Origin: Acutalibacteraceae bacterium
GTDB lineage: Bacteria > Bacillota > Clostridia > Oscillospirales > Acutalibacteraceae
Assembly (NCBI GenBank): GCA_045633485.1
Contig: JAZQYL010000022.1
Location: 1,235-65,234, forward strand
Direction of reading: 5' to 3'
Length of the DNA: 64,000 bases
Part shown: positions 33,213-58,056 of the stretch, in pieces
Numbering within the stretch: position 1 is the first letter of the stretch
How the letters are laid out: each line of letters starts with the position of its first letter
Translations under genes and position numbers: made by a program
Notes under the pieces: model-generated
Told to the model about the DNA's origin: nothing
The model's database searches: none
The model's input: the letters and a program-made list of their open reading frames with translations, nothing else

Positions 33213-33213
33213 A

Positions 33214-34362: not shown

Positions 34363-34368
34363 ATTAAA

Positions 34369-35412: not shown

Positions 35413-35423
35413 AAAGCGCCTCC

Positions 35424-36416: not shown

Positions 36417-36432
36417 TAGTAGTTACTCCAAA

Positions 36433-39006: not shown

Positions 39007-39036
39007 AAGTGTCGCGCTCCTTTATAAATAAATATT

Positions 39037-40338: not shown

Positions 40339-43300
40339 TTTCCAGTACTTCCTCCTTATGATGCTTTTTTTGTTTAATATTTTTTACAAAAGCAGAAATT
40401 TTTGAAAACAAGAATTTTACAAATGATATTACCTTTGTAAAAATCAATTTTGCTATTTTAACAACTTGTTGCACAATTATTTTTGTCCATTTAATTAAGA
40501 AAGGTTTAATAACGTTAAATATCTTAACAAAAAACACCTTACATGCCACAAAAATTTTAACAACAAGTTTTGCTACAAAGGCAATAGAAATCTTAATTAC
40601 TGATATAACTTTAGCAAAAATCGGTTTTAAAATTTTTGCTGTGCTTTTAAATATAGGTTTACAAAAAGCTGCCATTTTATCGGTTACCGGCTTACAAAAA
40701 ACAACTATCTTATTCAAAATAGGTTTAATAAATTTTGAAATTTTTTGAATTAAAGGACTAACTAACGCTGAGATTTTATCGCATACAGGTTTTGTAAACT
40801 TAACGATATGTTGCTTAAACTTTTTAATAAGCAAAATTGCTGCTAAAACAACTGTTGCAAATATCGCAATTATCAAAACTAAAATACCGATATTAAATCC
40901 TTCTTTATTATCGTTTGTCTCTTCATTCTTTTGCGCATCAGGATCAAGCGCTTTTATACGTTGCTCGGCCGAAACAAGATCTGAATAGTTCTTTACAAGT
41001 GACTGTTGCTCAAGTGTTGCTATTTTTGAGTAAGCAGCACGTGCGCTTTCTACAAGACCCTTGTCGTCATAGCTAACTCTTTCTGGAATTGCCTTAATAG
41101 CGTTTATGGCATCAACCGCTACATCATCCGGCGCAGCAGGACCATCAATTACTAAATCAAAATACTGATTACAAATAAACGAATCGTATCCTACGCCGTT
41201 AATCGGACGTACCATTGTAAGCTTATTTTCAACCTTACCTACGTAGTCAACAAATGTTGCTCCGTAAAATACGTTAGAATACATCTCACCGGTTGCATTC
41301 CACATAAAGAACGGAATTATGCCCAAACCGTTTATCTGAACCTCGTTACCATCATAGTCGGTATAAGTTCCAAAATCACCCGTACCCGGGATATTCTCAA
41401 AACTACCGTAGTATGAAGGATCAAATTCTTCTTCAAAGTTTGGTACGGTATGACTACCAAAAGTAACCATATCAAGCATATTACAATCATAGAAAGCCTT
41501 GTGTCCGATTGCGGTAGTACTAAATGGCATTTTTACTCTGACAACATCGCTACCTGCAAAAGCATAAGCGGTAATACGTACGGTATCATCAGCAATAACA
41601 ACATCGTTGTTGTTTGTACCTGAATATGTTATAAGTTCCATTCCCTTTTCATTCATACAATAAAGTGAACCTTCAATAACAAATACGGTATCGCTTATTT
41701 CATAATTGTAAACCGTTACCTCTTTTTCTTTTCCATTTACTTTTTGCTTTTGTGTAGTGCTAAAAGGTTCGAGTTTACACATAGCAAACGGGTTGTCCGC
41801 AATCTTTTCAATATCTTTACCCAAAACAACTTTAAATGGTGTCAGGGTTTCTTTGATAAAAACATTTCTACCAATATTAACAGCAGCGGTAAGATCAGCT
41901 GATGTAATTGCTGTATATGCAAATGCATAATCACCAATGTTTTCCACACAGTTAAGATTATCAACTATGTCAAGCGGATCGCAATAAGAGAACGCGCCCT
42001 CACCTATCTGTTCGGTTTTTTCGCAAAACTTTACAGTTTTAAGCAAACGGTTAGATACAAATGCATACTTATCAATGTTTTCGGTTGCGGATACATCAAG
42101 AGTTTCTAATCCGCACTCCATAAATGCGTACTCGCCGATTGTTTCAACCTTGGAAAGATTTATACTCTTTAACGCATCACAACCTGCAAATGTATAGGGT
42201 TTAATTTCTTTTATATCATCACTTAATTCAACTTGAACAAGTTGACGACAATATGAGAACGCATATTCACCAAGAGTTTCTGCAGACGAAATATCGGCAT
42301 TTGTTATTTGCGGTCCGTGATATGTGTAATGATAATAACCATTTGAATTAACCGCTGCAACGGTCATATTTTCATCAAGACAAGCATAATACACATCGCC
42401 CGAAATCGCATAATCACCAATTTCTTTAACCTTTGATAAATCAATATTCTTAAGGCTTGATGTATTATAGAATGCCATTTTTTCAAGTTTTGCGCCCTCA
42501 CCTAAAGTAACGGTCTCAAGACTTGCGGCATTTGAAAACGCGTTTTCGCCGATTTGAGCATTTTTACCTATAGTAAGTGAGATTAATGGTGATGAAAATA
42601 CATATCTGAACAGTTTTTGTTCACCGTTCATATACATTTCTACCTTGAATGCTCTATCTTTGTCCATACTAAAGGCGTATTTTCCAATTTTAACATCATC
42701 GCCTATAACAACGGTTGTCAAATCTACGCATTCACTAAATGTTCCCTCTGCAATTTCCATCTTATCAGGAATTGTAACCGATGTTAATTTAGTAAACGAG
42801 AATGCATATTTGCCTATTTTTACCTTTTTATCAAGGTTCGGCATTGTAGTAATTGATGTTTCAAAAAATGCATAATCACCAATTTCTTTAAGTTCACCAA
42901 GAGATACCGAAATCAATCCCTCATTAGACGCAAGACCGTACTCACCAATTGCAGTTACCTTTTCCATCAAAACCGATGTAATTTTTTGGTTGTGTGAAAA
43001 AGCACCTTTAGCAATTTCATTAACCTTTTTACCACCTATATTATCATAGGTAAATTCGCCCTCAATAAGAGGTGATACGGCAATAAGTTTTTTACCGTCA
43101 GAAGAAAGTATATATGCCTTATCGTGAGCCTTAAAGTTTTTATTTCCTTTTTCAATTTCAAATTCTGAAATTTTTGTATCTCTGAATGCGAATACCCCGA
43201 TATCGTTAACATCAGGACCTATGGTAAGTTTTTTCATATCATCGCATTCGTAGAACATACCTTCAGGAAGAACTGAAGAATTTACATAAAACTCTTTAAG

Positions 43301-46300
43301 TGTTTCGCAGCTGGTAAATGCATAAGGACCGTATTTTACCTTTTTAGCATCAATTTTTACATCTTTTAGCTTTTTGCAGCCTGCAAATGCATATTGGCCA
43401 ACAGAATAAAGATTTTCACCAAGTTCAATACCTTTTAATTTTTGATTACCTGCAAATGCATAATCAGAAATTACACAAACAGATGGTAGTTTTAACGTAT
43501 CGCGTAAATCGCAATTTTCAAATGCGTTTTGGTTAATTATCTTTAGATTATTTTCGCCGCTGAAAGTAATTTTTTGAAGAGCAGTACAACCATAAAACGC
43601 ACCATAATCTATTGATTCAAGGGTTGATGGGAATACAACCTCTTCCAACGCAGTCAAATTAGCGAAGGCATAACTTGCAATGCTTTCTACACCCTCAGGT
43701 ATTACAACCTTTGTGATGGTATTATCACCAATAAACCAAGCCTTTGATGTTTCGGCATCGTCAAAAGCAAGTTCTTCCTCCGTTTTCATAATATATTCGA
43801 AATTAGAGAAGGCAAACTGACCGATCTGAGTTAAGGATAGATCCTCCGGTATATTAACAAGACCGCCGTTACCATAATAGTGTGTAAGACTTGCGCCTGT
43901 TGTCACATATGGATCCTTAACTTCAACATTAACAGTTTCAGAATAATATGTGCTCTTATCATCAAGCAATACCTTAACTGTGATAGAGGCAAAGCCTTCT
44001 GCTTGAGCTGTAACCAAACCTGAATTGTCAACCTTTACAATATTTTCATTACTGCTTTCAAACGATACAGATGTATCATTCTTAAAGAATGAATCTAACG
44101 AGAAGTTGAGCGCTACCTCTTCCGAAGGATACATTTCCAATTTGTAATTTCCTTCAAAGAAGTTTGTACTACCGGTATCACCTAATTTTTTATCTTCATT
44201 TTCAAGAATATAGTACGCCTTGTTGGTATAAAAACCATCTAATGTAAATACATCGGCAACCGGTTTATCATATCGGCGATATCCATCATCACCTTTTTCA
44301 AGAACAGTAACATTAAAGGTTATACTTTTATTGTTTAGCGGATCCTGTGCCTTGATAATCGCATTACCACTCTTAACCGCTACAAGTTTATTGTTAACAA
44401 CACGAACTACACTCGGTTTAGAAGAAGAATATTCTAATAACTCCGCCCACTCTGTATCGGGAACAATAACAGGTTCGAGTGTATATACCTCGTTTGGACT
44501 AAGAGTAATTCCGTCCTCAACACCTTCAAAGTAAAAGTCGGTAAAATCATCAGGAAGTGACAATTCATATGTTGCGTAATTCAGAGCATAGTCATATGCA
44601 TTAATTACGAACGTATTCTTAGTAGTAGCATTATTTTTAATATCGTAAATATAATCGGTAAGTTCATATGTAACCTTAGTTGTATCATTGCGTTCAGAAT
44701 AAACAGGTGTCATATACTGCTCTAATGTTTTCATAGCAGGACCAACATTACCGTCCGCATCAGCTTCTTCGGTAACATAACCAATTTGTGAACACATAGC
44801 ATAATGATTGTCATAAATCATTACATCAGCATATAATCTGTTTTTCTTTAAGGTTTTATCATATTCATATCTGTATTCCACATCGGTGATTGTGGGGGCT
44901 TCAAAGTCGGCAACAAGTGGGAATTCAAAAACATTGTTTTTATTTGTTTGAAGTCCGCCATCGCCGTAATCAACATAACCTACAAGTCTTACTGTATATT
45001 CACTATTATTTTCAAGATTATATTCGGTAGTGTCAAATTCTATTTTTACATTCGAAGGATAAATTGACGCACCACCGTCACTATAAGACTTGCGGATATC
45101 ATTTTCTACCTTTTCGAATACTACATCACCAGTAATGTCATCGGTTATTGTTATTTCAATTTTTGCAGCATTTCGTAATAGACCTGCCCAAACAAATCTT
45201 AGAGAATGTATTGTACCCACTTGGTTTGACAACGCAACATAATTTTCATTTGCAGAGATAACCATGTCATCAGGATCCTGCAAGAAATAATATGAACCAA
45301 GGTAGCTTACATAGTCATCACTAACGCCGCCTACAGGACGAGTAGCATATGCGTCGGCTTTTGTTTTATCTTCTTCATCAATACCATCATCAAGTTCATC
45401 AGCATTTGTATCATAGTATGTAAGGTCAAAAAGCGGAGCTTGTGTCCAATCACCATAAAATGCAAGATAAGGAACATTAAGATCAACCTTTGTACCGGAT
45501 TTTGCCTCTAAAGTAACAAATCCTTCAACATACATACCATTTTCAAACGACTTGTCCAAATACTCTTTATCTTCTTTACCAAGAGTAATCTTCACAGTAA
45601 CTTCTGTTTGACCGTTTTTCTTAACTCGTACGGTATTTTTATTCGATTTTTTGCCATTAATAGCCACAACCTTAACCTTTGCGCCGTCTAACAAACGCGC
45701 CTCTTCGGTAATGGTTGTTTCGCCTGCGGCAGTTTTGGTATCACTAACACCCTCGGTCATTACATACGCATCAATATCGTATGATACCGCATGTTTTGCG
45801 GTATTGTTTATGGTAAACGTCATGGTGTATTCGCCTGATTTTCTTGGATCATCACCAAGTTCAAGTTTGGCTTTATCTGTTATTTCACCATCTTCGTCTT
45901 TAACGGTTATATACGCTGGTGATTTAATAGAATTTGTAAGGTTTGCAAGACCTGCGCCCTGTTTTCTTACCGAGTACGGAAGACCATTTTTCGCAAGCGC
46001 AATATCTGCTGTAGACATAATCAAACAATTAACCATTGTGTTGACAGCTTGATTATCATCGGCAATTTCGGGATAATTTTCCACAACGTATTGACGAAGC
46101 AACACAACAACACCTGCATAGTTAGGACATGCCATTGATGTACCTGACAAACGGTCATAACTACCGCCGGTAATTGAAGAAAGTATGCTACCACCGTGAG
46201 CCGTAATTTCAGGTTTAATTTTAAGGTCTGGTGTAGGCCCCCACGATGAAAAGTCAGAAATAAATGGACCCGAAGTTTGCTTGCGGCTTATCTTTAAGGT

Positions 46301-47959
46301 ACCTTTGCCCTTAGCAGCAAGCAATTCACCATCGTCTTGTGAAATAGAACATACCGCAAGTGTCGCATCTCCAACATTCATTTTAATATCGCCGGATACA
46401 TTGTTATAAATTATAATACCTGCAGCGCCTTGCTGTTGCGCAATCATTGCCTTTTCTTCAAATGTGTTTGAACCACGGCGAACAAGCGCAATCTTACCCT
46501 CTACATTCATGCCTGTATAGTCGGCACTACGGCCAACGCCGGGTATTAACACATAATCAATCTTTATGGATTTTTTATCACCGAGTAAGGAATCGTAAAA
46601 ATTGTTTTCTTCTGCGGAACCATTTGTCGATTCAACAAAGTAAATAATTTTATTATCAAATTCAATATATGGTGTTTCTGCGCCGGCAATAGAAGCTACC
46701 GACATAACGCCGTCATAGGTTGAAGGCGAGCCAACAGTACCGGTATCGGGATTAGAGGTAAGACCTAAATTACCGTTCTTTTCTGAGCCATATGCTGAGC
46801 TATAACTGTTAGAAGCCGCTACAACCATACAGATACCAGAATCGCGAAGCTTATCATATATTCCGTCAACCGCTTCTTCATCGCTTTCACGGCTGAAACC
46901 ACAAGCAGTACCGATTGACATATTAATAACATCAACGCCCAAAACAATGCAGTCCTCAAGAGCAGCTAAAATCCAAGCGGTACGTGCGGTATCCATAACA
47001 TCGGAAAATATCTTCATGGATACAAGTTGAGCGTTAGGAGCAACGCCTCGTATTGTATCATCGTTACCAACAATTACACCCGATACATGAGTACCGTGAT
47101 TGTTATGTGTTGAATATGCATCAGAATCAACATCTGCATAGTCAAAGTTATATGGGATTTTTTCGTTTATATAAACATCATCAACCGTAAGTCCGTCTAA
47201 TTGCTCGCTTGCCACAGTATCCTTAATAACTGCAGCAACATCATCATATGTAAGACCCAATTTTTTGCTTGTAAAATTATCTGTCGAAAACGCAGTATGA
47301 TTTGAATCTATACCTGTATCAAGCACAGCAACAACCATACCTGAACCATCGTAACCCGAATCAGAGCTATCAAAAATGCCGGTATCAAAAACGTCAACGG
47401 CGTTTTCAACAAGTTCTGTTTCACAAGTATTGTATTCCTCGCCAACAATTATGTTCATATCGTCGCTTATGGAATCACAAATTTTCTCAAAGTCAGAAGC
47501 TTTAATAAGAAGCTCAAAACCATTTATTATAGTAGAATATTCTTCGCCTGTTTTATAAGAAATGTTTTTCTCATCAAGTATAGCAAGCACCGACTCCTTA
47601 CCATTGGCAAGAGACTGCTTTGCCACTTTAGCGTAATCACCATTTGAAGCAAAGTCTGATAAGCTCATTGTTTTATCAGTACCCTCATAAACATCAATAA
47701 CAGCCTTATCACCTGTTGTTATTATTACGGAAATTTCGTCATTGTCATTAATTGTTTCAGGCAATTGATAAACTTTCGTATCATCAAAATACTTTGAATA
47801 ATCTAGCGCTATATTATCTATTTTTTTAATATCGGAATTATAAGATTTATCCGATAATGCATAGATGCTCGACATTGGTAGTGATGCTGCCGCTATCACA
47901 ACAGACAATACTGCGGCTGACATACCTTTTAATAATTTTTGTAATTTTAAGCACTTCAT
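40322..47959 (-). CDS. Giant (2545 aa) membrane-anchored S8 subtilisin-like cell-envelope protease with PA domain, Ig-like domains, about 800 aa of BspA-type leucine-rich repeats, a TM helix and a Lys-rich periodic tail
   Basis: Signal peptide. Catalytic triad contexts VAVLDTGID (about 47320), HGTHVSG (about 47090) and SGTSMACP (about 46135). PA-like insert KIALVRRGSNTFEEKA...GAAGIIIYNN. Big_2-like segments at about 43930-44520. LRRs at 41460-43860. TM at about 40832-40900. Confidence 0.85.
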   Translation of the reverse strand: MKCLKLQKLLKGMSAAVLSVVIAAASLPMSSIYALSDKSYNSDIKKIDNIALDYSKYFDDTKVYQLPETINDNDEISVIITTGDKAVIDVYEGTDKTMSLSDFASNGDYAKVAKQSLANGKESVLAILDEKNISYKTGEEYSTIINGFELLIKASDFEKICDSISDDMNIIVGEEYNTCETELVENAVDVFDTGIFDSSDSGYDGSGMVVAVLDTGIDSNHTAFSTDNFTSKKLGLTYDDVAAVIKDTVASEQLDGLTVDDVYINEKIPYNFDYADVDSDAYSTHNNHGTHVSGVIVGNDDTIRGVAPNAQLVSMKIFSDVMDTARTAWILAALEDCIVLGVDVINMSIGTACGFSRESDEEAVDGIYDKLRDSGICMVVAASNSYSSAYGSEKNGNLGLTSNPDTGTVGSPSTYDGVMSVASIAGAETPYIEFDNKIIYFVESTNGSAEENNFYDSLLGDKKSIKIDYVLIPGVGRSADYTGMNVEGKIALVRRGSNTFEEKAMIAQQQGAAGIIIYNNVSGDIKMNVGDATLAVCSISQDDGELLAAKGKGTLKISRKQTSGPFISDFSSWGPTPDLKIKPEITAHGGSILSSITGGSYDRLSGTSMACPNYAGVVVLLRQYVVENYPEIADDNQAVNTMVNCLIMSTADIALAKNGLPYSVRKQGAGLANLTNSIKSPAYITVKDEDGEITDKAKLELGDDPRKSGEYTMTFTINNTAKHAVSYDIDAYVMTEGVSDTKTAAGETTITEEARLLDGAKVKVVAINGKKSNKNTVRVKKNGQTEVTVKITLGKEDKEYLDKSFENGMYVEGFVTLEAKSGTKVDLNVPYLAFYGDWTQAPLFDLTYYDTNADELDDGIDEEDKTKADAYATRPVGGVSDDYVSYLGSYYFLQDPDDMVISANENYVALSNQVGTIHSLRFVWAGLLRNAAKIEITITDDITGDVVFEKVENDIRKSYSDGGASIYPSNVKIEFDTTEYNLENNSEYTVRLVGYVDYGDGGLQTNKNNVFEFPLVADFEAPTITDVEYRYEYDKTLKKNRLYADVMIYDNHYAMCSQIGYVTEEADADGNVGPAMKTLEQYMTPVYSERNDTTKVTYELTDYIYDIKNNATTKNTFVINAYDYALNYATYELSLPDDFTDFYFEGVEDGITLSPNEVYTLEPVIVPDTEWAELLEYSSSKPSVVRVVNNKLVAVKSGNAIIKAQDPLNNKSITFNVTVLEKGDDGYRRYDKPVADVFTLDGFYTNKAYYILENEDKKLGDTGSTNFFEGNYKLEMYPSEEVALNFSLDSFFKNDTSVSFESSNENIVKVDNSGLVTAQAEGFASITVKVLLDDKSTYYSETVNVEVKDPYVTTGASLTHYYGNGGLVNIPEDLSLTQIGQFAFSNFEYIMKTEEELAFDDAETSKAWFIGDNTITKVVIPEGVESIASYAFANLTALEEVVFPSTLESIDYGAFYGCTALQKITFSGENNLKIINQNAFENCDLRDTLKLPSVCVISDYAFAGNQKLKGIELGENLYSVGQYAFAGCKKLKDVKIDAKKVKYGPYAFTSCETLKEFYVNSSVLPEGMFYECDDMKKLTIGPDVNDIGVFAFRDTKISEFEIEKGNKNFKAHDKAYILSSDGKKLIAVSPLIEGEFTYDNIGGKKVNEIAKGAFSHNQKITSVLMEKVTAIGEYGLASNEGLISVSLGELKEIGDYAFFETSITTMPNLDKKVKIGKYAFSFTKLTSVTIPDKMEIAEGTFSECVDLTTVVIGDDVKIGKYAFSMDKDRAFKVEMYMNGEQKLFRYVFSSPLISLTIGKNAQIGENAFSNAASLETVTLGEGAKLEKMAFYNTSSLKNIDLSKVKEIGDYAISGDVYYACLDENMTVAAVNSNGYYHYTYHGPQITNADISSAETLGEYAFSYCRQLVQVELSDDIKEIKPYTFAGCDALKSINLSKVETIGEYAFMECGLETLDVSATENIDKYAFVSNRLLKTVKFCEKTEQIGEGAFSYCDPLDIVDNLNCVENIGDYAFAYTAITSADLTAAVNIGRNVFIKETLTPFKVVLGKDIEKIADNPFAMCKLEPFSTTQKQKVNGKEKEVTVYNYEISDTVFVIEGSLYCMNEKGMELITYSGTNNNDVVIADDTVRITAYAFAGSDVVRVKMPFSTTAIGHKAFYDCNMLDMVTFGSHTVPNFEEEFDPSYYGSFENIPGTGDFGTYTDYDGNEVQINGLGIIPFFMWNATGEMYSNVFYGATFVDYVGKVENKLTMVRPINGVGYDSFICNQYFDLVIDGPAAPDDVAVDAINAIKAIPERVSYDDKGLVESARAAYSKIATLEQQSLVKNYSDLVSAEQRIKALDPDAQKNEETNDNKEGFNIGILVLIIAIFATVVLAAILLIKKFKQHIVKFTKPVCDKISALVSPLIQKISKFIKPILNKIVVFCKPVTDKMAAFCKPIFKSTAKILKPIFAKVISVIKISIAFVAKLVVKIFVACKVFFVKIFNVIKPFLIKWTKIIVQQVVKIAKLIFTKVISFVKFLFSKISAFVKNIKQKKHHKEEVLENETEN
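40325..40825 (-). repeat. 167-aa cytoplasmic tail built from about 11-residue Lys/Ile/Phe/Val periodic units
   Basis: KPILNKIVVFC / KPVTDKMAAFC / KPIFKSTAKIL / KPIFAKVISVI / KIFVACKVFFV / KFLFSKISAFV and similar. 35 Lys in 167 residues by my count, with almost no acidic residues until the last 10. Confidence 0.75.
41460..43860 (-). repeat. Protein-level BspA-type leucine-rich repeat array within the protease
   Basis: Dozens of about 23-aa units of the form ...I.IP..V..IG.YAF..C..L..V... (for example IGQFAFSNF, IASYAFANLTALEEV, IDYGAFYGCTALQKI, IGEYAFMECGLETL). Confidence 0.7.
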
Positions 47960-48145
47960 ATTTTTTATAAAGCTCCCTTATAATTTTGTTATACATACTA
48001 GATATATATATTCAATTTATTTTACCCTATTTTACTTAAAAAAGCAAGAACAAAATATATATAATATATATTTAATATATAAGATTTACATTTGGGGAAT
48101 TTTATGCTATAATTATTCAAATTCTTTAGTTTGGGGTAGTATGAC

Positions 48146-48574
48146 ATGACAAAAGAAAAGACTGTTTATTTTCGTAAAATATATAAAATTCTGCTAAGTG
48201 CGTCGATTATTATTGCCGGAATAAGCCTTATAGTCGGATGTGTTACAATATATTTTTCAGGCAACGGATATTCAAGACAATTAGTAGCAAGCACATTTTC
48301 CAAAATTAACATCCCCGTTTATTTGTGCTTGGCGCTAATTATAGGTGATATTATTTGGGAGTTGCTTTCGCCAACCGACAAAGATTTTAAATCGGTTAAA
48401 AAAATTAAGACCGAGAACAAACAACCCACAGATAGCAAACACCTTTTTATTATTAAGCTTTGTATTCTTGGTGTTGCCATAATCGCCTTGATAGGTGGTT
48501 TCTTAGCGGGTGGTTATAACGATGTTCTAACAAAAGCAGTTAATATCTGCACCGAATGTATCGGTCTTGGTTAG
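48146..48574 (+). CDS. Small polytopic membrane protein ending in a CxxC motif (CD1871A-like)
   Basis: Three hydrophobic segments. The C-terminus NICTECIGLG carries the CxxC at 48548-48559. It lies directly upstream of the 4Fe-4S membrane protein. Confidence 0.5.
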   Translation: MTKEKTVYFRKIYKILLSASIIIAGISLIVGCVTIYFSGNGYSRQLVASTFSKINIPVYLCLALIIGDIIWELLSPTDKDFKSVKKIKTENKQPTDSKHLFIIKLCILGVAIIALIGGFLAGGYNDVLTKAVNICTECIGLG

Positions 48575-48585
48575 GGAGTTGTATT

Positions 48586-50046
48586 ATGAATAAAATAATT
48601 GAAAAAATAAAAAAACTCAAACCCACAAGACGAAAAATAATTCAACTTTATACAGCACTACTTTTTAATGTGAATTTTAAAGGTTTTGTTTCGGGAAATA
48701 TTTATCAAGGCAACACAAAAATCGCCTGTATTCCAGGACTAAATTGCTATTCATGTCCCGGTGCCGTAGGTGCCTGCCCATTAGGCTCACTACAAGGCTC
48801 ATTTAGCGCAAACAAAAGTACATTGTTTTATGTGGGCGGTATATTGCTTCTTTACTCAATAATGTTTGGAAGGTTTGTTTGCGGTTGGCTTTGTCCGTTT
48901 GGACTTATACAAGAGCTCATATACAAAATCAAAACTCCAAAACTTAAAAAGAATCGAGCAACAAAAATATTATCATACTTTAAATATATTATACTGGCAT
49001 TTTTTGTTTTTATAATTCCTATTGCTTACGCTTTAAAAGATACTCCCTTCCCTGCTTTTTGCAAGTACATATGCCCGGCTGGAACACTTGAAGGCGGATT
49101 AAGTCTTCTGGCGAACAAAGTAAACGACAGTTATTTTTCAATGCTGGGTCCAATTTTTACATGGAAATTTTTATTACTTATAAGCATAGTTGTGGCTTGT
49201 ATATTTATTTTTAGAATGTTTTGCCGTTTTATTTGTCCACTTGGCGCTTTATACGGCTTGTTTAACAAAATTTCTATTTTTGGAATTAAACTTGATAATA
49301 GTAAATGTATTAACTGTAATTTGTGTAAAAACAAATGCAAAATGGACATTACCCATGTAGGCGACAGCGAGTGTATAAGTTGTGGCGAATGCATTGATGT
49401 TTGCCCTACCGATGCTATTGTTTGGAAAGGAATTAAAAAGAATAAAATTTCGACAGATGATATAATATCCCATAAAAAATCAAGAATAATTACACGAGCG
49501 ATATCTACAGTTTTAATGGTTGCCATTATCGTTACATCGTCAATTTATTTTTGGAAAGACAGTAGTACCAAAACAAATTACGGTACAGAGATTGGTGAGT
49601 TGTGTTACGGCGCTGAGCTCCCTGTTGTAACACCGGACGGTGTGAGTGATAACACAATTAATCCTGCGAAAACAGGCAAAATTACGATAATAAACTTTTG
49701 GGGAACTTGGTGTACTCCTTGTGTGAAAGAGCTTCCCTATTTCGACCAAATTGCAAGTGAATATACAGACGAAGTAACGGTTGTAGCGATTCATTCAAGC
49801 GCCAGCAAAGAAACCTCTACTGAGTATGTTAAAACACATTACCCCAACAGTAAACTTGTTTTTGCAAATGATATTCCCGATGAAAACGATGTATTTAATG
49901 GAAAATATTATTTAAATCTTGGTGGAAGCGGCGCATACCCATATACCGTAATAATCGATCAAGAAGGCGTAATACGTCAAATATTTGTTAAGGCTTTACA
50001 CTACGAAGATCTTAAGCAATCGGTGGAAAGTATATTAAAAGACTAA
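48586..50046 (+). CDS. NapH/MauN-like membrane polyferredoxin fused to a C-terminal TlpA/ResA-type thioredoxin domain
   Basis: CYSCPGAVGACPLG, FVCGWLCPFG, FCKYICPAG and FCRFICPLG; two ferredoxin motifs, CINCNLCKNKC and CISCGECIDVCP. These are followed by an extra TM helix and then INFWGTWCTPCVKELPYF. AGGGAG RBS precedes the ATG at 48586. Confidence 0.75.
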   Translation: MNKIIEKIKKLKPTRRKIIQLYTALLFNVNFKGFVSGNIYQGNTKIACIPGLNCYSCPGAVGACPLGSLQGSFSANKSTLFYVGGILLLYSIMFGRFVCGWLCPFGLIQELIYKIKTPKLKKNRATKILSYFKYIILAFFVFIIPIAYALKDTPFPAFCKYICPAGTLEGGLSLLANKVNDSYFSMLGPIFTWKFLLLISIVVACIFIFRMFCRFICPLGALYGLFNKISIFGIKLDNSKCINCNLCKNKCKMDITHVGDSECISCGECIDVCPTDAIVWKGIKKNKISTDDIISHKKSRIITRAISTVLMVAIIVTSSIYFWKDSSTKTNYGTEIGELCYGAELPVVTPDGVSDNTINPAKTGKITIINFWGTWCTPCVKELPYFDQIASEYTDEVTVVAIHSSASKETSTEYVKTHYPNSKLVFANDIPDENDVFNGKYYLNLGGSGAYPYTVIIDQEGVIRQIFVKALHYEDLKQSVESILKD

Positions 50047-50047
50047 C

Positions 50048-50088
50048 AAAAAAACACAAACAGCAATTAATTGCTGTTTGTGTTTTTT
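50048..50088. terminator. Bidirectional terminator between convergent units
   Basis: Stem acacaaacagcaa / ttgctgtttgtgt, loop ttaa, flanked by an A-run and a T-run. Confidence 0.8.
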
Positions 50089-50095
50089 AAATTGT

Positions 50096-51676
50096 TTAGA
50101 AATAAACAAGTGGGCCTTGATTAATGTTTTTGTCAGCACTACTTGGCTTATCCTCAGGAACTAGAGGTTCATCAGGTTCTTCTGGAACAACAGGTTCATC
50201 GGGTTCTTCCGGAACCTTAGGTCCTAAAGTCACATTCCAACCATTAAGATATTGCATCAGTAAACCGTAATCTTTATTATTGATTGCCTTATCATCATTA
50301 ACATCGGCTGTTTCGGTAATAATTTCAACATCCCAGCCGTTAAGATATTGCATCAACAAACCTAGGTCCTTATTGTTAATGTTTCTGTCGCCGTTTATAT
50401 CGCCGATTTCAAAGGGCGCTCTTACAAATCCACACACATTGCAGGTTGTATCAGCATTGTCATCATATACGTGAGCATCGGCATCAACCGATATGATAAC
50501 GTCGGCTTCGCGTGATAATTCTTCATTACATACTGTACAGTATACAACCATATCACACAATCCTTCGTTTGTGCAGTTTGCAGGAGTTTTAATCTCCTGT
50601 GTGGGCGCACCTTCGGTATGAGGTAATACATCGGTAATAACAACCTCACGAGATATTTCCTCGCCACATACTGTGCAAATGATTATATTTTCATAAGAAC
50701 CGTTTTGTGTGCAGGTAGCTGGAACCTCTTTTTCTTTGGTTGGTGCGCTTTCTGTGTGTTTAAAGAAACACATTGCTGTCACATCTTCATCATAATAACA
50801 AGCAAATAACCATGCGTCATCTGAATCATAAATAAAAGCATCCTCGCCACTATACCATCTGTTAGAATCACCGACTTCTTTGAAAATTTCAATCAAATCG
50901 ATGGTAAGCGGATAATAAAATGACGGTATTGTACCGGTTTCATCATCGGTAAGCGCATCTAAATATTCATACAAAGCAGCAGTGTAATCAACCTTGCGTG
51001 TTACCTTGTTGTCATCATCGTAATATACAGCCGACACTTTACCATTTGAAACCATACTATAAAGCGAAATCATATATTCATCATGTAAATTTGCGAAAAG
51101 CACAGGGCCATTCTCATCATTAAGATGATAGCATCCGTCACTGCCTAAAACAGCATTATCTATTATTTCATCTTCAAAATCAATGTAATTGTCAGAAAGC
51201 GACTCAACATCTACATTAGATGGCATTGTGAATTTTTTAGGAGATTGAACGTTTTGGTAAATTTCCCACGGTATTTCGCCACTTAAATCAAGGTCTGTGC
51301 GTGTAACTGTAATGGTAGCCTCAGCAAGCTCTGAATTTAAAGCAATCATTATTGCCTGACCTATATCATTACATTCCCAAGTTATGGTAGTGGCGTTTAC
51401 ATTATCTGCAGTAGGGTCATTTTGAACCCACATATCAATATAACTTACAATACCAATAAGACCATCATTTGTTGTAATGGTGTATTCGCCAATATTGGTA
51501 GGTGCAAGTATGTATACTGTATATTCAGTTGAAGTTTCTACAGTATACACGTTAGTGCCTTCCGTTAGTACAGTCGAACTAATAGTATAATTTTCTTCCG
51601 CCATAACCGTCATTGGCAATAATAAAAGGGCCATTATTAGCATTGCGCTTACAGCGATTTTAAATATTTTCTTCAT
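50096..51676 (-). CDS. Secreted dockerin-bearing protein with Cys-rich modules and the shared YH-NGP/WL-C-YY domain
   Basis: Signal peptide; the domain CYHLNDENGPV...AWLFACYY; modules PATCTQNG...CTVCGEE and PANCTNEG...CTVCNEE; a canonical two-segment dockerin (about 50222-50412); a P/E-rich tail. Confidence 0.7.
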   Translation of the reverse strand: MKKIFKIAVSAMLIMALLLLPMTVMAEENYTISSTVLTEGTNVYTVETSTEYTVYILAPTNIGEYTITTNDGLIGIVSYIDMWVQNDPTADNVNATTITWECNDIGQAIMIALNSELAEATITVTRTDLDLSGEIPWEIYQNVQSPKKFTMPSNVDVESLSDNYIDFEDEIIDNAVLGSDGCYHLNDENGPVLFANLHDEYMISLYSMVSNGKVSAVYYDDDNKVTRKVDYTAALYEYLDALTDDETGTIPSFYYPLTIDLIEIFKEVGDSNRWYSGEDAFIYDSDDAWLFACYYDEDVTAMCFFKHTESAPTKEKEVPATCTQNGSYENIIICTVCGEEISREVVITDVLPHTEGAPTQEIKTPANCTNEGLCDMVVYCTVCNEELSREADVIISVDADAHVYDDNADTTCNVCGFVRAPFEIGDINGDRNINNKDLGLLMQYLNGWDVEIITETADVNDDKAINNKDYGLLMQYLNGWNVTLGPKVPEEPDEPVVPEEPDEPLVPEDKPSSADKNINQGPLVYF

Positions 51677-51708
51677 ATAATTTACTCCAAAAAATTATAA
51701 TATGTGCT

Positions 51709-52743
51709 TTATGCATATTTAATTAAAAATTCAATATCTGTTGCTTTATACTGATTACGCTTATCAGGCTTAATTCCTACCGTGATTCTTAAAACATCAC
51801 CTTTATTAACCTCGACCTCTACATAGGTACCAAGATCATCAGACTTAACCTCGCCTTCTTCTGTTGCTTCAGTACTTCTTAATGCAGAATTACGAAGATT
51901 TTGAACCATTAATTGACCTTTTTTTGTTCCACTCAAAAGATAAAAACGAATAGTTCCATCTTGTTTTGCTGTGTACTGATATACATAACCTTGATTATCG
52001 TCATCTTCTAAATGACGCTTAATACTTTCATCAATCGATTTTATCTGTGCCGGAGCATCAATAGTTCCGAGTTCAGCTTGGAAAATAACACTAAAAGTTT
52101 CAGGTGCGGAGCCAGCGTTACCAAACTCAAGCATAATAAACTCATTGGACATTGCATCGCTTTCTACGAAGAAGGTTAATTTACCATTGTTTGCCGTATG
52201 TTTTTCACCATTATAAACAACATATGCATTGGGACTATTAATGATTAAAATTCTATTGGCAGCACCACGAACCTTATAAAACAATGATTTGCCTGCCGGA
52301 ATTTCATGTGTTAAAAATGTTCCATCCTCGGAAAGGAATGCTTCATACGCGGTATCGGTCGTTTCACCATTACCGCTTCCAACTTGAGGTGTGTCGGGTA
52401 TTTCAGGTGGTGTCTGGGTATTGTTGGTAAAGTCGTTATTGTTATCATTGTTGTCGGAATTTTCGACATCACCATCAGAATTATTGTTGCTATTTGAATT
52501 ATTGTTCGAATTGCCTTGTTGACCACTTTCTGTGGTATCGGACGTTTCATCAAGAAGAGATTCAAGATTACTTTCGTTATCATTTATAATATCAACACTA
52601 TCATACGTAATACTACCGGTGGATGATGTGCTTAAATAATCGTCACCTTGATTACCGCCAATTTTACGGCAAGATGTCAATGATAAAACAAAACATAATA
52701 TTAATAAAAACGCAACAAATTTTTTGCATAAATTTTTATTCAT
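51709..52743 (-). CDS. Hypothetical lipoprotein with an Asn/Ser/Asp-rich linker
   Basis: Lipobox LTSC; low-complexity NSNNNSNSNNNSDGD...; beta-rich C-terminal part. Confidence 0.5.
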   Translation of the reverse strand: MNKNLCKKFVAFLLILCFVLSLTSCRKIGGNQGDDYLSTSSTGSITYDSVDIINDNESNLESLLDETSDTTESGQQGNSNNNSNSNNNSDGDVENSDNNDNNNDFTNNTQTPPEIPDTPQVGSGNGETTDTAYEAFLSEDGTFLTHEIPAGKSLFYKVRGAANRILIINSPNAYVVYNGEKHTANNGKLTFFVESDAMSNEFIMLEFGNAGSAPETFSVIFQAELGTIDAPAQIKSIDESIKRHLEDDDNQGYVYQYTAKQDGTIRFYLLSGTKKGQLMVQNLRNSALRSTEATEEGEVKSDDLGTYVEVEVNKGDVLRITVGIKPDKRNQYKATDIEFLIKYA

Positions 52744-52768
52744 TTGGAATACCTCTTTTATGGAAAAG

Positions 52769-53173
52769 TTAAGCTATTGTATTGTTCAGAACAATAGTAT
52801 AAGATGTTAAATCATCTTCAAGATAAATCTCCTCTTCCCCTGTATATTCATAGCCTTCAGGGCAAGACATTACTGACAATTTGTGCTCGTCGGTTATCAC
52901 TGTGTTAAATACTGCAACACCGTTTTCATCCGTCATAGCAGGGGTGCAAACATCTTTGCAAATTTGTACCATAACACCCTTAACCGGACTATCGTTTTGA
53001 TCTGTAACAATAACCTCGAATTTAGAAGTTGTTTCATCATCGGAAGATGTTTCATCCTTGGCACTTTCGGACTTACTTACACCATCATAAATAGTCTTCT
53101 CATCATTGCCAAAGCAACCGCAAAGACAAAAAGTAAGAACTAAAGCCAAAATAAGAGCTATGAGTTTTTTCAT
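52769..53173 (-). CDS. Small lipoprotein with a prealbumin/CarboxypepD_reg-like beta-sandwich
   Basis: Lipobox LCGC; FEVIVTDQNDSPVKGVMVQI...DENGVAVFN pattern. Alternative start at 53182. Confidence 0.5.
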   Translation of the reverse strand: MKKLIALILALVLTFCLCGCFGNDEKTIYDGVSKSESAKDETSSDDETTSKFEVIVTDQNDSPVKGVMVQICKDVCTPAMTDENGVAVFNTVITDEHKLSVMSCPEGYEYTGEEEIYLEDDLTSYTIVLNNTIA

Positions 53174-53195
53174 GTATACCATTCCTTTTATATCA

Positions 53196-53804
53196 TTATT
53201 TTATATCACTTACATTTTTAATGGTTGTATGTTTATAGTTATCAGCCGTAAAGAAAGCAAATATTTTTTCAAATACACCTTCCTCAGTTATGCTACCCAT
53301 ATGCATAAAAGCGATTGAGCCATAACGATCTATAACAACCGTTGTCGGAAATCCTTGTAAAGAAAAAGCGGAAATCCAATCCTGCTCTCCCTTTATCATA
53401 GGCAATGTAATATTATTTTGTTCTGCAAATTTTTGAATATCTCTTTGCTCATCATCAGTCGGATTAATAGCGAAAACAATAACATCATCATCGTACTTAT
53501 CAGCTGCTGCTTGCAAATAAGGAAATTCCATCTGACAGGGTCCGCAGCCGACAAACCAAAAGTTAAGAACTATCGCTTCTTTTTCTTTGAAAACCTCAGA
53601 GAACTTATATGTGTTACCGTTTATATCCGTAAGACTGTGATTACCCATTAAATCACCAAGTTTATAATCACACAAATTAAGTGATGGATTATCCACAAGG
53701 CTGACTTTTCTTTCCGTAGCTTTACAACCAATTAACGAAAGAACAAGTAATAAACATATAATTATTGAAACAATTTTTAAAAAATATCTGTTCATATTAA
53801 TCAC
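53196..53804 (-). CDS. TlpA/ResA-family thiol:disulfide oxidoreductase lipoprotein
   Basis: Lipobox LIGC; LNFWFVGCGPCQMEFPYL with the CGPC at 53535-53546. A GTG start overlaps the upstream stop (GTGA); an alternative ATG is at 53795. Confidence 0.8.
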   Translation of the reverse strand: MINMNRYFLKIVSIIICLLLVLSLIGCKATERKVSLVDNPSLNLCDYKLGDLMGNHSLTDINGNTYKFSEVFKEKEAIVLNFWFVGCGPCQMEFPYLQAAADKYDDDVIVFAINPTDDEQRDIQKFAEQNNITLPMIKGEQDWISAFSLQGFPTTVVIDRYGSIAFMHMGSITEEGVFEKIFAFFTADNYKHTTIKNVSDIK

Positions 53805-55039
53805 TCAGCATAACAACACATAAATAACCATGCTATTTCTGCGTTTATATCTGTCATATTATTGCCCGAATCATCTTTAAACATATAGGTTGGGTTTTCA
53901 ATATCCCACCAACCAACATATTCACCACGTTGTTGAATAATATATTTTAAATCTTCTGTAAGTGGGTAAACACCATTGTCTTCGTCAACGTATTCTATAT
54001 ATTCAAGCAAGCACTCCGAATAACTTTCTTTTTTGATAAAGTTATTGTTTTCATCAAAGAAATACTTATTAACACCTGATCGATCAAGTATTGTTTTAAA
54101 ACAAGCAATGTACTCGTTATCCTCGGCAAGGCGAACAAGCACTATCGGTCCATTTGCATCGTTCAAATGATAATAACCTTCATCTTCATTCAAAACCAAT
54201 TTATATGCATCGGTTGAAGCGGTTAAATCAAATTCTTTTATTTCAAGATTATTAGGTAAAATATAGTCTTGAAGTTCAACCGATTTTTGATAGACAGTCC
54301 ATGGTTCATCTTCAACCGTCTTTATAGCATCTCCTAATCTATTAATACCAATAATACAGTTTTTCGCTTTTTTATCAGCATCAACACCAATTACAAACGT
54401 TGATGTACCAGTACCATTCGTACCAATCATACCTGATTTAACATTTATGGTAAATTTATTATCCTTTACCTCAGTTGCCGAATTGCTTTGAACAAAGTGC
54501 GGTGCGCCGTAATAGCCTATTGTAGCATTTTTGCCTTCCGGAATCGAAAACTCATAATTTCCTTCCTTACTAGGTGTGAAAAGGAAATAATTACGACTTC
54601 CCGACTTCAGTTCTACATAGGTACAACCCGTATCTATTGTATACGCATCATATTCATCAGAACCAACATATAATTTTTCGGGCTTCCCTGTGATTTTATA
54701 GGCTAAAATAACGTCAACCTCATTTTTTCGTGGAGAAAGCTTTATGTTTTTATCATAATGATATTGGATTTTCTCATCAGCAAACTGAAGAACAACATCA
54801 TACTTTCCGTTAATTAATGATTTTATTGCGGCACCCTGCTCGTTGCAAGATTGCATTGCAACCTGTTTACCATCCTGCATAAACTTCACTACTATACCTG
54901 ATGAATAAGGATTGCCTAGAGCATCCTTAACATTCACCGTGTAATCCTTTTCACCCTTGCCGCATGCGGCAAGAGTGAAAAGAGAAATTGTAATGATTAT
55001 TACTAGAAGGATTGAAATTAATCTTTTAATGCTTTTCAT
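53801..55039 (-). CDS. Lipoprotein: beta-sandwich, jelly-roll-like domain and the shared YH-NGP/WL-C-YY domain
   Basis: Lipobox LAAC after MKSIKRLISILLV. The start is 55039 or 55048; the track start at 55114 overlaps the upstream gene. C-terminal GYYHLNDANGPIV...AWLFMCCYAE. Confidence 0.55.
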   Translation of the reverse strand: MKSIKRLISILLVIIITISLFTLAACGKGEKDYTVNVKDALGNPYSSGIVVKFMQDGKQVAMQSCNEQGAAIKSLINGKYDVVLQFADEKIQYHYDKNIKLSPRKNEVDVILAYKITGKPEKLYVGSDEYDAYTIDTGCTYVELKSGSRNYFLFTPSKEGNYEFSIPEGKNATIGYYGAPHFVQSNSATEVKDNKFTINVKSGMIGTNGTGTSTFVIGVDADKKAKNCIIGINRLGDAIKTVEDEPWTVYQKSVELQDYILPNNLEIKEFDLTASTDAYKLVLNEDEGYYHLNDANGPIVLVRLAEDNEYIACFKTILDRSGVNKYFFDENNNFIKKESYSECLLEYIEYVDEDNGVYPLTEDLKYIIQQRGEYVGWWDIENPTYMFKDDSGNNMTDINAEIAWLFMCCYAE

Positions 55040-55061
55040 TTTTATCATACTTTCATTAAAA

Positions 55062-57908
55062 TTAATTGTTTGGACCAAGAGAATCATAATAATAACAAAT
55101 CTTGAGCCATGCATTTTCTACATCGTCAAACGTATATTTGTCCATAAGTTGTTGTAAAAGTTCAGCAAGTTCTTCATCAACAACTACACAACCATCAATC
55201 TCAGTTCCCGATTTGTCAATTTTACTTATATACTTTTTAATATCTTCAGTGCAATCATCACCATCACCATGATATCTACCGGCAAACACATCATCTAACT
55301 GATATATTTCAGCATTCTCATCATATTCGTCGCCCCAAAGTTTTTTAAGATATTCTCTTGTTTTTTCTATATCGTTGTCGTTCTGCTTCAAGTATGCCAA
55401 AATTTCACCATCAGTTTCTGACTTACTGAAATCAAAACCGCCCATTTGAATCATCTGAACAATAGATTGACTAAACACAGGTGTGATGCCTGTAAAGTCG
55501 GCATAAATCAAACTTCCATCTTTACTATCGTAATATTTTCCGTCTTTTAGTTTTGGTTTAATACCACCTGTGATAATATCATACATTGCATTACCGGTAG
55601 CGTCGGTATCATATGTGAAATATCCCGGAGCTGCCAATCTTAAAAGTTTGTATGTTGCACCAATAAATTCAACATCATAATTAATTGTACCGGTTGCATA
55701 TACATCCCAAAACGCCATATTTATATAATACGGTGTTCCGGCATTCATATAGTAAACCATAGAACAGTTTTTATCATCGGCAAACATTCTTTCGTCGTGC
55801 TCATATGTATATACGAGTTTACCATCTTTGTCAAAAATCCAAGCTTCAATGCCCTCTTCGTAATCGCTCTTTGAAGTAAAGCGATACACACCTGACTGTG
55901 ATGGCACAAACTCGGCAAACATACCTCTTGGAATTATAGCTCGGTCATAGTAGAAATTATTGCTCGGTATGTTTTTACCTAGAGTTACTTTAAAAGCACT
56001 AAATGTTGCAAGACCTTTAATTGGGTCTTCAAGCTGTGTAGCACCCTTACCATATGCTTGATAATACTTACACATCTTAAGCCATTCATTGTCATCATCT
56101 TCAAAACCTGCAACTCTAGCTACCTGCTTAAGCATCTCGGCTAGTTCTTTATTAACAGTACAAACACCATTGATTCTTGAGTTAGATGCATATGAGAAAT
56201 ATTGCACCATACCAAGACCATTTTCTTCCTTTTTGTCGTAAAGACTTACACCATCTTCATCGGCATCGCCTTCTGTAACGATTGTTTGAACCGATTCTTC
56301 CTCGCTAAATGGTGTAAAGCCCATAAGATCAGCAAGTAGTAAAGGACCGTTTGCGTTACCTACATGATAGTAACCATCATTTTCGTTAAATACTACATCA
56401 ACATAAGTGTACTTGTCGTTTTCATCAGCAACTGCTGCATAACGAGGTAGATATGTTGCTGTGTCGATTTGTGACTGATCTACAACACGCATATTATCAA
56501 TATAAACCGTATCATCTCCATCAGAACCATCTTCGTCCTTAAGGAAGCATAGCGCAATCTCGTACGTACCGTCTTTATCCGCAACGCAAGGATAACATGA
56601 TTTCCATTCTTCAGGAGAAGATACGCCGGATATTTGGAAAATATCCTCATCATTTACTATGACGTACATAATGTCGCAACCTAATTCCGATGAAACAAGG
56701 TAGTCAAATCCCACTGCCTGACCAGCTTTAAGTTCAATATCCGCATATAGGATTGCATATGAACTATCAATACCAGTATTTGAAGCTTTTACACAAGAGC
56801 GTCCGGATTTTTCGGAAATTATAAAGGGCCAGATAAACTCTGCATTTTCATCTTCGGTTTCGGGTCTGTAGTTCACGTTTATGTTACCTACATTTATTGT
56901 AGCAGCAATTTCGTCAGATGACGGCATTTCATAGGTTGGTTTAATTTGTGTTACAAGATCACCTATACCATTTTCACATACCTTTTGGTTATACGGATCA
57001 GCTGTAAAATGGTCAAACGCACATACCCAAGGGCGCTTACTTGTAATAGCGCCTGATTCTAATACGCAAATAACACCATATTGGTCAATAAATACCGATG
57101 TAGGATAACCTTGTACACTAAATGTGTTTGACCAAGATGCAGGACATGCAGCCATATTAAAAGAATAACCATATTGTTTTTGAAATCCGTCAACTACATT
57201 GTTGTCTTCCATTGGATTAATGGCGATGATTTCGACATCATCCTTATAATCGTTGTAAACTTCCTCCATAAGCGGGAATTCTTCTAAACACCAGCTACAT
57301 GTTGTATACCAAAAGTTAAGAACAACCAACTTTTTGCTCTTTAAAACTTCAGAAAGTTTGAGCTCCGTGCCATCCGGTTTCATGACTGTAAAGTCATACA
57401 TTACATCACCAAGTCCCAATGTGGCGGTTGAAATATCCTCGTCAGTAATAAGCGATGATGTTAAAACTATATCAACTTTATGATCGTTAAATTTATAAAA
57501 CTTTTCTACATTATAACCCTTTGGAACCGATTGTAATTCAATTACATAATTCGAACTTTCATCAAGATTAAATGTTGCTTCACCCTTGTCGTTTGTTTTT
57601 GTGTAGTCAATCATATCACTCATAGTATCATCGGTATATATGTAAGCATCAATGCCCGACATAGGCATACCGCCTGCAGTTTTAATACTCAATGAATAAA
57701 GAGTGTCACCTTGAGGTCTATCAAATTCAGTTTCATTATCCTTGCCTTTAAAATTGAATAAACCCGGAACAAAAATTACTCCACAAACTATTGCAACAAC
57801 TAAAGCCGCAGCAATAATTATAAAAAGAACTTTTTTAGCCTTTACAACTTCCCAAGCCTTTTTGAACAGTTTGCCAATTTTGTTAAAGAAAGCTTTTAAT
57901 TTTTCCAT
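55062..57908 (-). CDS. Signal-anchored 948-aa modular protein with a beta-sandwich, a TlpA-type thioredoxin, jelly-roll-like domains and two copies of the shared domain
   Basis: AGGAGG RBS precedes the ATG at 57908. The TM helix is VLFIIIAAALVVAIVCGVIFV. The thioredoxin motif LNFWYTTCSWCLEEF has its CSWC at 57288-57299. The shared domain occurs at about 56050-56385 and 55065-55545. Confidence 0.7.
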   Translation of the reverse strand: MEKLKAFFNKIGKLFKKAWEVVKAKKVLFIIIAAALVVAIVCGVIFVPGLFNFKGKDNETEFDRPQGDTLYSLSIKTAGGMPMSGIDAYIYTDDTMSDMIDYTKTNDKGEATFNLDESSNYVIELQSVPKGYNVEKFYKFNDHKVDIVLTSSLITDEDISTATLGLGDVMYDFTVMKPDGTELKLSEVLKSKKLVVLNFWYTTCSWCLEEFPLMEEVYNDYKDDVEIIAINPMEDNNVVDGFQKQYGYSFNMAACPASWSNTFSVQGYPTSVFIDQYGVICVLESGAITSKRPWVCAFDHFTADPYNQKVCENGIGDLVTQIKPTYEMPSSDEIAATINVGNINVNYRPETEDENAEFIWPFIISEKSGRSCVKASNTGIDSSYAILYADIELKAGQAVGFDYLVSSELGCDIMYVIVNDEDIFQISGVSSPEEWKSCYPCVADKDGTYEIALCFLKDEDGSDGDDTVYIDNMRVVDQSQIDTATYLPRYAAVADENDKYTYVDVVFNENDGYYHVGNANGPLLLADLMGFTPFSEEESVQTIVTEGDADEDGVSLYDKKEENGLGMVQYFSYASNSRINGVCTVNKELAEMLKQVARVAGFEDDDNEWLKMCKYYQAYGKGATQLEDPIKGLATFSAFKVTLGKNIPSNNFYYDRAIIPRGMFAEFVPSQSGVYRFTSKSDYEEGIEAWIFDKDGKLVYTYEHDERMFADDKNCSMVYYMNAGTPYYINMAFWDVYATGTINYDVEFIGATYKLLRLAAPGYFTYDTDATGNAMYDIITGGIKPKLKDGKYYDSKDGSLIYADFTGITPVFSQSIVQMIQMGGFDFSKSETDGEILAYLKQNDNDIEKTREYLKKLWGDEYDENAEIYQLDDVFAGRYHGDGDDCTEDIKKYISKIDKSGTEIDGCVVVDEELAELLQQLMDKYTFDDVENAWLKICYYYDSLGPNN

Positions 57909-57971
57909 AACTCCTCCTAAATAAAAGACAATTTTTTTGTGGTAGATACAATCCATCCAATTATTCAACTT

Positions 57972-58001
57972 ATTGTACCATACAATAAGCGTTATCGTCA
58001 A
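57972..58001 (-). promoter_or_regulatory. Candidate sigma-A promoter of the secreted-thioredoxin operon
   Basis: On the minus strand: TTGACG (58001-57996), 18-nt spacer, TGgTACAAT extended -10 (TACAAT at 57977-57972). Confidence 0.45.
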
Positions 58002-58019
58002 CAAAAAATTACAATAAAT

Positions 58020-58056
58020 TAAAAAAATATCCCGATTTATTGCAAATCGGGATATC
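58020..58056 (-). terminator. Rho-independent terminator after the radical SAM gene
   Basis: Stem atatcccgattt / aaatcgggatat followed on the minus strand by a T-run. It overlaps the stop codon. Confidence 0.6.

Follow-up and report, generated by a model that had tools for sequence, protein, structure and literature searches.

A repeated, unannotated and predicted extracellular domain in a thioredoxin-rich operon of gut Clostridia

Four copies of one domain in a six-gene operon

The stretch of Acutalibacteraceae DNA analysed here (contig JAZQYL010000022.1, 64,000 nucleotides; hereafter the window) contains a six-gene operon in which three proteins together carry four copies of a domain that we call X. 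The original prediction had placed four related segments in three proteins of this operon, and all four were located on the minus strand, no more than 12 nt from where they had been put (Table 1). X is a genuine domain family of gut Clostridia, without annotation and, as judged from its sequences, undescribed and extracellular. The copies are referred to by type: B for the copy in the lipoprotein (copy 1), AN for copy 3, AC for copy 4, and O, or third-protein, for copy 2.

The first gene of the operon encodes a type-II membrane protein that combines a prealbumin-like domain with a TlpA-type thioredoxin. Its longest open reading frame (ORF), of 998 aa, probably overstates the N-terminus (57905-58058), the true start being more likely MEKLKAFF at 57905, just past the promoter-like site; the radical-SAM gene upstream has a terminator of its own at 58056-58026, ahead of that site. 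The second gene encodes a lipoprotein with an ORF of 437 aa, but its orthologues begin at the methionine of MKSIK (about 55039; overstated stretch 55039-55114), a start that removes the apparent overlap with the first gene and leaves a 22-nt gap behind the upstream stop. The third gene specifies the separate thioredoxin lipoprotein (202 aa), the fourth and fifth encode two more lipoproteins, and the sixth a secreted protein of 526 aa that carries Cys-rich repeats and ends in a type I dockerin (36.2 bits, Pfam). As read from sequence, the proteins that carry X bear a transmembrane anchor, lipoboxes (LAAC, LIGC) or a signal peptide, and X is therefore predicted to be extracellular.

Table 1. Coordinates of X, its partner modules and the neighbouring genes in the window
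Feature	Position	Strand	Details
Six-gene operon with all four X copies	50096..57905	-	promoter-like site 58001-57972 to bidirectional terminator 50049-50088
Copy 1, conserved segment	53804-54178	-	aa 313-437 of the 437-aa lipoprotein
Copy 1, full X (B type)	53804..54241	-	aa about 292-437, C-terminal end of the 437-aa lipoprotein
Jelly-roll upstream of copy 1, PPC/collagen-binding-like	54248..54682	-	aa 145-289; Foldseek 5sv5 (TMt 0.57), ColG collagen-binding domain (0.51-0.56), PliG
Copy 2, conserved segment	50780-51133	-	aa 182-299 of the 526-aa dockerin protein
Copy 2, full X	50777..51199	-	aa about 160-300 of the 526-aa secreted dockerin protein
Jelly-roll upstream of copy 2, homologous to that of copy 1	51215..51598	-	aa 27-154 of the 526-aa protein; BLASTP and profile
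Copy 3, conserved segment	56049-56375	-	aa 562-670 of the 998-aa ORF
Copy 3, full X (AN type)	56034..56426	-	aa about 545-675 of the 998-aa ORF
Jelly-roll upstream of copy 3, CBM/MAM-like	56427..56894	-	aa about 389-544; all-beta residues 45-200 of the AlphaFold2 model; Foldseek CBM, MAM and meprin domains
Copy 4, conserved segment	55074-55538	-	aa 841-995 of the 998-aa ORF
Copy 4, full X (AC type)	55065..55592	-	aa about 823-998 of the 998-aa ORF
Jelly-roll upstream of copy 4, PPC-like	55632..55964	-	aa about 699-809; AlphaFold2 residues 355-465; Foldseek 5sv5 (TMt 0.67)
TlpA/ResA-type thioredoxin module (CSWC), same chain as copies 3 and 4	57039..57410	-	Pfam Redoxin 50.1 bits (cutoff 26.6), AhpC-TSA 46.8 (cutoff 26)
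Separate TlpA-type thioredoxin lipoprotein (CGPC)	53196..53804	-	Pfam and NCBIfam matches, 53.6 bits
Convergent pair: small CXXC membrane protein and NapH-like polyferredoxin fused to thioredoxin	48146..50046	+	Pfam, NCBIfam
S8 cell-envelope protease (PA, Fn3 domains), lipoprotein and OppABCDF	32211..47959	-	Pfam; divergent from the CXXC/NapH pair

The four copies are homologous. BLASTP aligned about 290 aa of the 437-aa lipoprotein with the 526-aa protein (E 1e-17); the lipoprotein's match to the 998-aa protein had E about 1e-6. A hidden Markov model (HMM) of the B/O clade matched copy 1 at aa 283-437 (E 3e-70), copy 2 at aa 162-297 (E 1.5e-36) and copy 3 at aa 548-660 (E 3.7e-14). Merely compositional similarity was ruled out by hhalign comparison of clade profiles, which were made from copies of 80 loci in other genomes, split by tree clade, with the window sequences excluded: the B/third-protein type aligned with the copy-3 type at 99.1 % (E 8.6e-19) and with the copy-4 type at 95.9 % (E 5.9e-9), and the copy-3 and copy-4 types aligned with each other at 97.9 % (E 3.2e-13). 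Copy 4 had been described as more diverged; because the AC profile matches both the AN and the B/O profiles, it is a genuine member of the family, carrying a helical insert of about 60 aa and an Asp in place of the family His (sequence KYYDSKDG). The 1.79-Mb assembly, which is 88 % complete, holds these four copies of X only.

Family, motif and predicted fold

A profile built from the four copies revealed a large family. Against 1.84 billion representatives, clustered at 50 % identity, it recovered at least 1045 clusters (1045 at E <= 1e-3, and 556 at E <= 1e-10). Half of the X copies sit at the end of their protein, and about half of the carriers hold at least two copies.

The claim that X belongs to no familiar family survived sequence searches of Pfam-A, NCBIfam and the Protein Data Bank (PDB), as well as whole-chain Foldseek searches. 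Neither Pfam-A nor NCBIfam assigned a family to X, in whole proteins or in excised segments, at thresholds up to E 10; the best Pfam matches on segments (DIX, EF-hand_8 and Trans_reg_C, E 0.05-0.2) fell far below the cutoffs, and 46 diverse members scanned singly against Pfam gave no recurring weak match. X profiles of 4, 46, 69 and 116 sequences found no PDB chain below E 0.03, their best matches (E 0.066, 0.055, 0.17 and 0.034) lying on unrelated short stretches. The Foldseek queries were whole-chain models, both of them run against the PDB and the lipoprotein model also against BFVD, so that jelly-rolls dominated the match lists; the top 50 matches comprised only beta-sandwich, jelly-roll and immunoglobulin (Ig) folds, with no alpha/beta match. 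A literature search found no description of such proteins.

The description proposed at the outset, with a length of 110-160 aa, needs correction: the domain spans 125-175 aa and begins about 18 aa before GYYH, with two additional beta-strands. Across 200 full-length copies the motif reads D-G-[YF]-Y-H ... G-P ... Y ... Y ... G-x-x-P-[VL]-x-x-x-L ... W-[LM]-x-x-C-x-Y. G, P, Y, W and L make up most of the conserved positions, and D, H and C are among the few polar ones. The His is kept in 177 copies and replaced by Y or R in 21. The Cys, singled out earlier as an invariant residue in a thioredoxin-rich operon, is indeed nearly so (191 of 200 copies), but it is replaced by L, V or I in seven copies and has no conserved partner. 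No second Cys column is conserved in these 200 copies, other Cys columns being clade-specific and filled in 35 % of copies or fewer, and 28 copies contain a single Cys; a conserved disulfide within X is thereby ruled out. B-type copies usually carry two adjacent Cys residues (W-L-F-M-C-C-Y; 53810-53818 in the window), and the copies of the large protein have a clade-specific Cys in the strand ahead of the long helix (G-V-C-T-V and G-C-V-V-V).

AlphaFold2 models were made of the mature lipoprotein (385 aa, alignment of 116 rows, predicted local distance difference test score 96.2, predicted template modelling score (pTM) 0.79) and of residues 345-998 of the large protein (69 rows, 90.5 and 0.80, respectively). 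In both models, X is predicted to be a mixed alpha/beta domain. It opens with a three-strand meander, of which the Y-Y-H motif forms the middle strand, followed by at least one helix with a clade-specific insert, modelled as a hairpin in the B type and as helices in the copy-4 type (residues 537-597 in model numbering). The domain ends with a short strand, a long helix starting from P-[VL]-T-x-[ED]-L, a short Trp-Leu helix and a last strand that opens with the Cys; in copy 3, the strands of model residues 206-233 lead through helices to the last strand at 319-325. Most likely the Cys lies buried in the core, as a residue of this modelled strand, and is not a redox centre, since its replacements are L, V or I, as would suit a buried hydrophobic position.

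Every X in the two models lies directly C-terminal to an all-beta, jelly-roll module (Table 1). The jelly-rolls upstream of X reached TMt 0.57-0.67 to 5sv5 and 0.51-0.58 to the collagen-binding domains of ColG and ColH, with no Pfam PPC match. The profile of the copy-1 jelly-roll also matches residues 27-154 of the 526-aa protein (E 7e-34), and the copy-4 jelly-roll weakly resembles the B-type jelly-roll profile in one motif (aa 716-731, E 0.02). Because the lipoprotein and the dockerin protein have clearly homologous jelly-rolls as well, the repeated unit comprises a jelly-roll plus X, about 290 aa in all. Elsewhere in the operon, a 344-aa lipoprotein (51709-52743) has a long, low-complexity linker rich in Asn, Ser and Asp, followed by beta-rich regions with PPC-like motifs (Y-x-Y-x-x-x-x-x-G-x-I-x-F) and weak matches to jelly-roll profiles (E 2.5-8).

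Distribution, thioredoxin fusions and gene neighbourhood

A scan with one genome per species yielded 80 loci (L005-L084), all from metagenome-assembled genomes (MAGs) of gut Clostridia named as Acutalibacteraceae, Oscillospiraceae, Ruminococcus, Lachnospiraceae, Agathobacter or Lachnobacterium; many of the isolate names indicate gut samples of goat, sheep, buffalo or roe deer. Nearly all 80 loci keep the same gene order, with the two-copy protein, the one-copy lipoprotein and then a third carrier of X. An Ig-like lipoprotein is present in 68 of the loci and the convergent pair of the CXXC protein and the NapH-like thioredoxin fusion in 30, many of these presence counts being limited by contig ends. 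Among 65 orthologues of the one-copy lipoprotein, X is the module of highest conservation (68 % identity, versus 52-57 % for the others), and all modules of the large protein are conserved alike (65-69 %).

A tree of 214 copies resolved three deep clades, namely AN (55 orthologues), AC, and a joint clade of B and third-carrier copies in which copy 2 of the window is placed. As the copies group by clade and not by species, the duplications of X predate the spread of the operon. The operon was absent from all 400 other genomes sampled across the phylum, gave one weak match among 200 other genomes of the family, and, within the genus, was found in 13 of 100 other species, with three to five copies of X in each. 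It is thus a patchy, accessory element, present in both Oscillospirales-like and Lachnospiraceae-like MAGs, and its distribution suggests lateral spread among Clostridia of the herbivore gut.

The association of X with thioredoxins extends well beyond the window. A TlpA-like module lies in the same chain as X in 87 of the best 150 representatives, including every listed one longer than 815 aa, and a Pfam-based count found a thioredoxin in 18 of 42 carriers; the only other modules that share a chain with X are Ig-like, dockerin and SLH modules. At Lachnospiraceae-type loci, the third carrier is a single fusion with the order Ig, thioredoxin, Ig, jelly-roll and X (L036:8493-11615, L061:6219-8408 and L062:8575-13602), the L062 version reaching 1676 aa with two copies of X. 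Because the thioredoxin lipoprotein and the jelly-roll-X protein, which are separate in the window, are fused in these lineages, they are likely to work together, by the Rosetta-stone argument.

Next to the operon, beyond the CXXC/NapH pair, lie an S8 cell-envelope protease (40322-47959) and the genes of an Opp peptide importer. Full-length, collinear orthologues of the protease (56-69 % identity) also adjoin the operon in distant loci (L061, L066, L068, L069, L076, L080 and L082), downstream of it in most and upstream-divergent in three, and the protease was found in nine of the ten loci with enough sequence past the NapH pair. Because it stays adjacent in distant families, and in two arrangements, we suggest that selection has favoured the linkage of protease and operon beyond an inherited gene order. 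The divergent S8-Opp block and CXXC/NapH pair are parted by a region of 186 bp (47960-48145), whose best promoter-like match lies at 48085-48113 (11/12, with an extended TG); co-regulation of the two is possible. A 433-aa ORF between the protease and OppA (39037-40338) has no Pfam match at E <= 1e-5 and no X.

Possible role of X and comparison with known systems

We tentatively favour a model in which the jelly-roll and X together form a non-catalytic unit that holds or positions surface thiol reductases in aid of protein digestion, and regard the mechanism as a whole as plausible, though a little short of probable. X and its jelly-roll would form a compact arm, X itself being no enzyme, and this arm would either present disulfide-bonded extracellular proteins to the tethered thioredoxins or hold the thioredoxin modules in place. 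The thioredoxins would be kept reduced by the neighbouring iron-sulfur/thioredoxin membrane protein of the NapH type, the presumed electron donor. Substrates that had been reduced and unfolded would then be cut by the adjacent S8 protease and the peptides imported through Opp. A non-catalytic role for X is suggested by the mainly structural nature of its conserved residues and by the replaceability of its His and Cys.

Several points weigh against this model. The burial of the Cys and the interface between jelly-roll and X are derived from predicted secondary structure, the substitution pattern and a pTM of about 0.8. A Cys that is nearly invariant in a thioredoxin-rich system, and often adjacent to a second Cys in the B type, could have a functional role. 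The whole-chain fold search leaves room for X to be a known fold, which may be a binding or an enzymatic one. The link to the protease is one of gene neighbourhood alone, and all carriers of X are known from uncultured MAGs only.

Among the alternatives, the one that survives best, although we consider it unlikely, is that X is a diverged member of a described fold or family, such as a known binding module, which sequence methods have missed. Many domains of unknown function defined at the sequence level have later been assigned to known folds, and the dominance of jelly-rolls in the whole-chain Foldseek searches leaves space for such an outcome. Against it stand the lack of any match in Pfam, NCBIfam or the PDB, even when the profile comprised as many as 116 sequences, and the lack of an alpha/beta match in the top 50 structural matches of either model.

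It is rather unlikely, but attractive in several respects, that X is an assembly module whose copies in the membrane-anchored, lipoprotein and secreted or dockerin-bearing carriers bind each other, through homotypic or paralogue-specific contacts, and so build a surface thioredoxin complex. Copies of X occur only together, three to five per genome, in one operon; three paralogue clades are maintained side by side in every species; the carriers differ in their anchor (transmembrane segment, lipid, dockerin or SLH); and no other module of the one-copy protein is conserved as well as X, as is typical of obligate interfaces. However, X is already fused to thioredoxin in many lineages, where docking would be less needed.

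We consider it improbable that X is a redox-active, single-cysteine domain whose Cys exchanges with the CxxC of the tethered thioredoxin or captures substrates as mixed disulfides. The near-invariance of the Cys, the constant proximity of thioredoxins and the frequent vicinal Cys pair of the B type would all fit such a domain, but the Cys is exchanged for L, V or I and not for Ser or Thr, it lacks a conserved partner and is the sole Cys of the 28 single-Cys copies, and it opens the terminal beta-strand after the Trp-Leu helix, within the hydrophobic motif W-L-x-x-C-x-Y-Y. The extended form of this idea, which makes X a new kind of extracellular redox domain, is similarly improbable: the operon would then act as a surface thiol relay, powered by the NapH-like protein and not by CcdA/DsbD, that reduces disulfide-rich dietary or host proteins and holds them for the protease. 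Finally, a hidden hydrolase with a catalytic set of His and Cys (and Asp) is very improbable, since, although the few conserved polar residues include D, H and C and a His followed by a Cys recalls the peptidases of clan CD, both residues are replaceable in the family, the His even by Asp in copy 4 of the window, X reaches about half the size of a clan CD fold, and no peptidase was matched in Pfam scans of X or in Foldseek searches of the whole-chain models; a His/Cys enzyme was rejected on account of these substitutions.

With more than 1000 clusters, no annotation and confidently predicted structures, there is enough to justify a new domain entry for X. On its own, X would be one more domain of unknown function, and its value lies in the system that surrounds it, a conserved surface system of herbivore-gut Clostridia, marked by X, that brings outward-facing thioredoxins together with a peptide importer and a giant protease of the cell envelope. 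If the jelly-roll-X unit does prove to be a substrate-handling arm, it would show how anaerobes treat disulfide-rich proteins of feed or host before digestion, and would offer a defined, expressible module for the study of extracellular thiol reduction in Gram-positive bacteria.

The closest known parallel is the extracytoplasmic thioredoxin group of TlpA, ResA, StoA and Etrx, with which the carriers of X and their neighbours have in common CxxC thioredoxin modules that face outward, are anchored by membrane or lipid and exceed the Pfam cutoffs. The described members of that group are, to our knowledge, single thioredoxin domains, whereas the thioredoxin here is tethered to Ig-like domains and to one or two jelly-roll-X units, with a NapH-like polyferredoxin fusion as presumed donor, and X itself has neither a thioredoxin fold nor a CxxC. 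Surface thioredoxin lipoproteins have been described in Streptococcus pneumoniae as Etrx1 and Etrx2 (PMC3914529). Like these, the thioredoxins of the X operon presumably pass electrons to extracellular targets.

The jelly-roll module before X invites comparison with the PPC and collagen-binding domains of clostridial and Bacillus collagenases (5sv5, 1nqd/4hpk and 5iku), to which it is similar in fold (TMt 0.5-0.67). In collagenases, these modules bind the protein substrate of the protease. The likeness concerns only the module next to X, and no X-like domain follows the PPC domain in the matched structures. X also resembles the ‘X modules’ of cellulosomal and other Gram-positive proteins, which are accessory modules of structural or no known role beside CBM-like modules and dockerins, one of the carriers of X ending in a type I dockerin; it differs from them in having no sequence relation to any Pfam module, and in its partners, which are thioredoxins and not glycoside hydrolases.

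The best Foldseek match of the two-copy region was the C-terminal extension of the Cry1Ac protoxin (4w8j; E 1.1e-6, 474 columns), which we take to alternate helical domains (IV and VI) with beta-roll domains (V and VII). The beta-rolls account for the match, which has TM-scores of 0.14 and 0.10 and a root-mean-square deviation of 20 Å and does not equate X with the helical protoxin domains; given those scores, it was dismissed as evidence on X.

The proposed sequence of reduction followed by proteolysis has a functional analogue in the breakdown of keratin. Keratin and other highly disulfide-bonded proteins are generally inaccessible to common proteases (PMC6095591), and proteolysis of this type needs disulfide reduction alongside S8 proteases (PMC6095591, PMC6906142). 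The analogy is one of general concept and not of homology, those sources describing neither surface thioredoxins nor jelly-roll-X proteins. Set beside these systems, the extracytoplasmic thioredoxin theme of the operon is a known one, seen here as a variant, and the new element is the X domain family.

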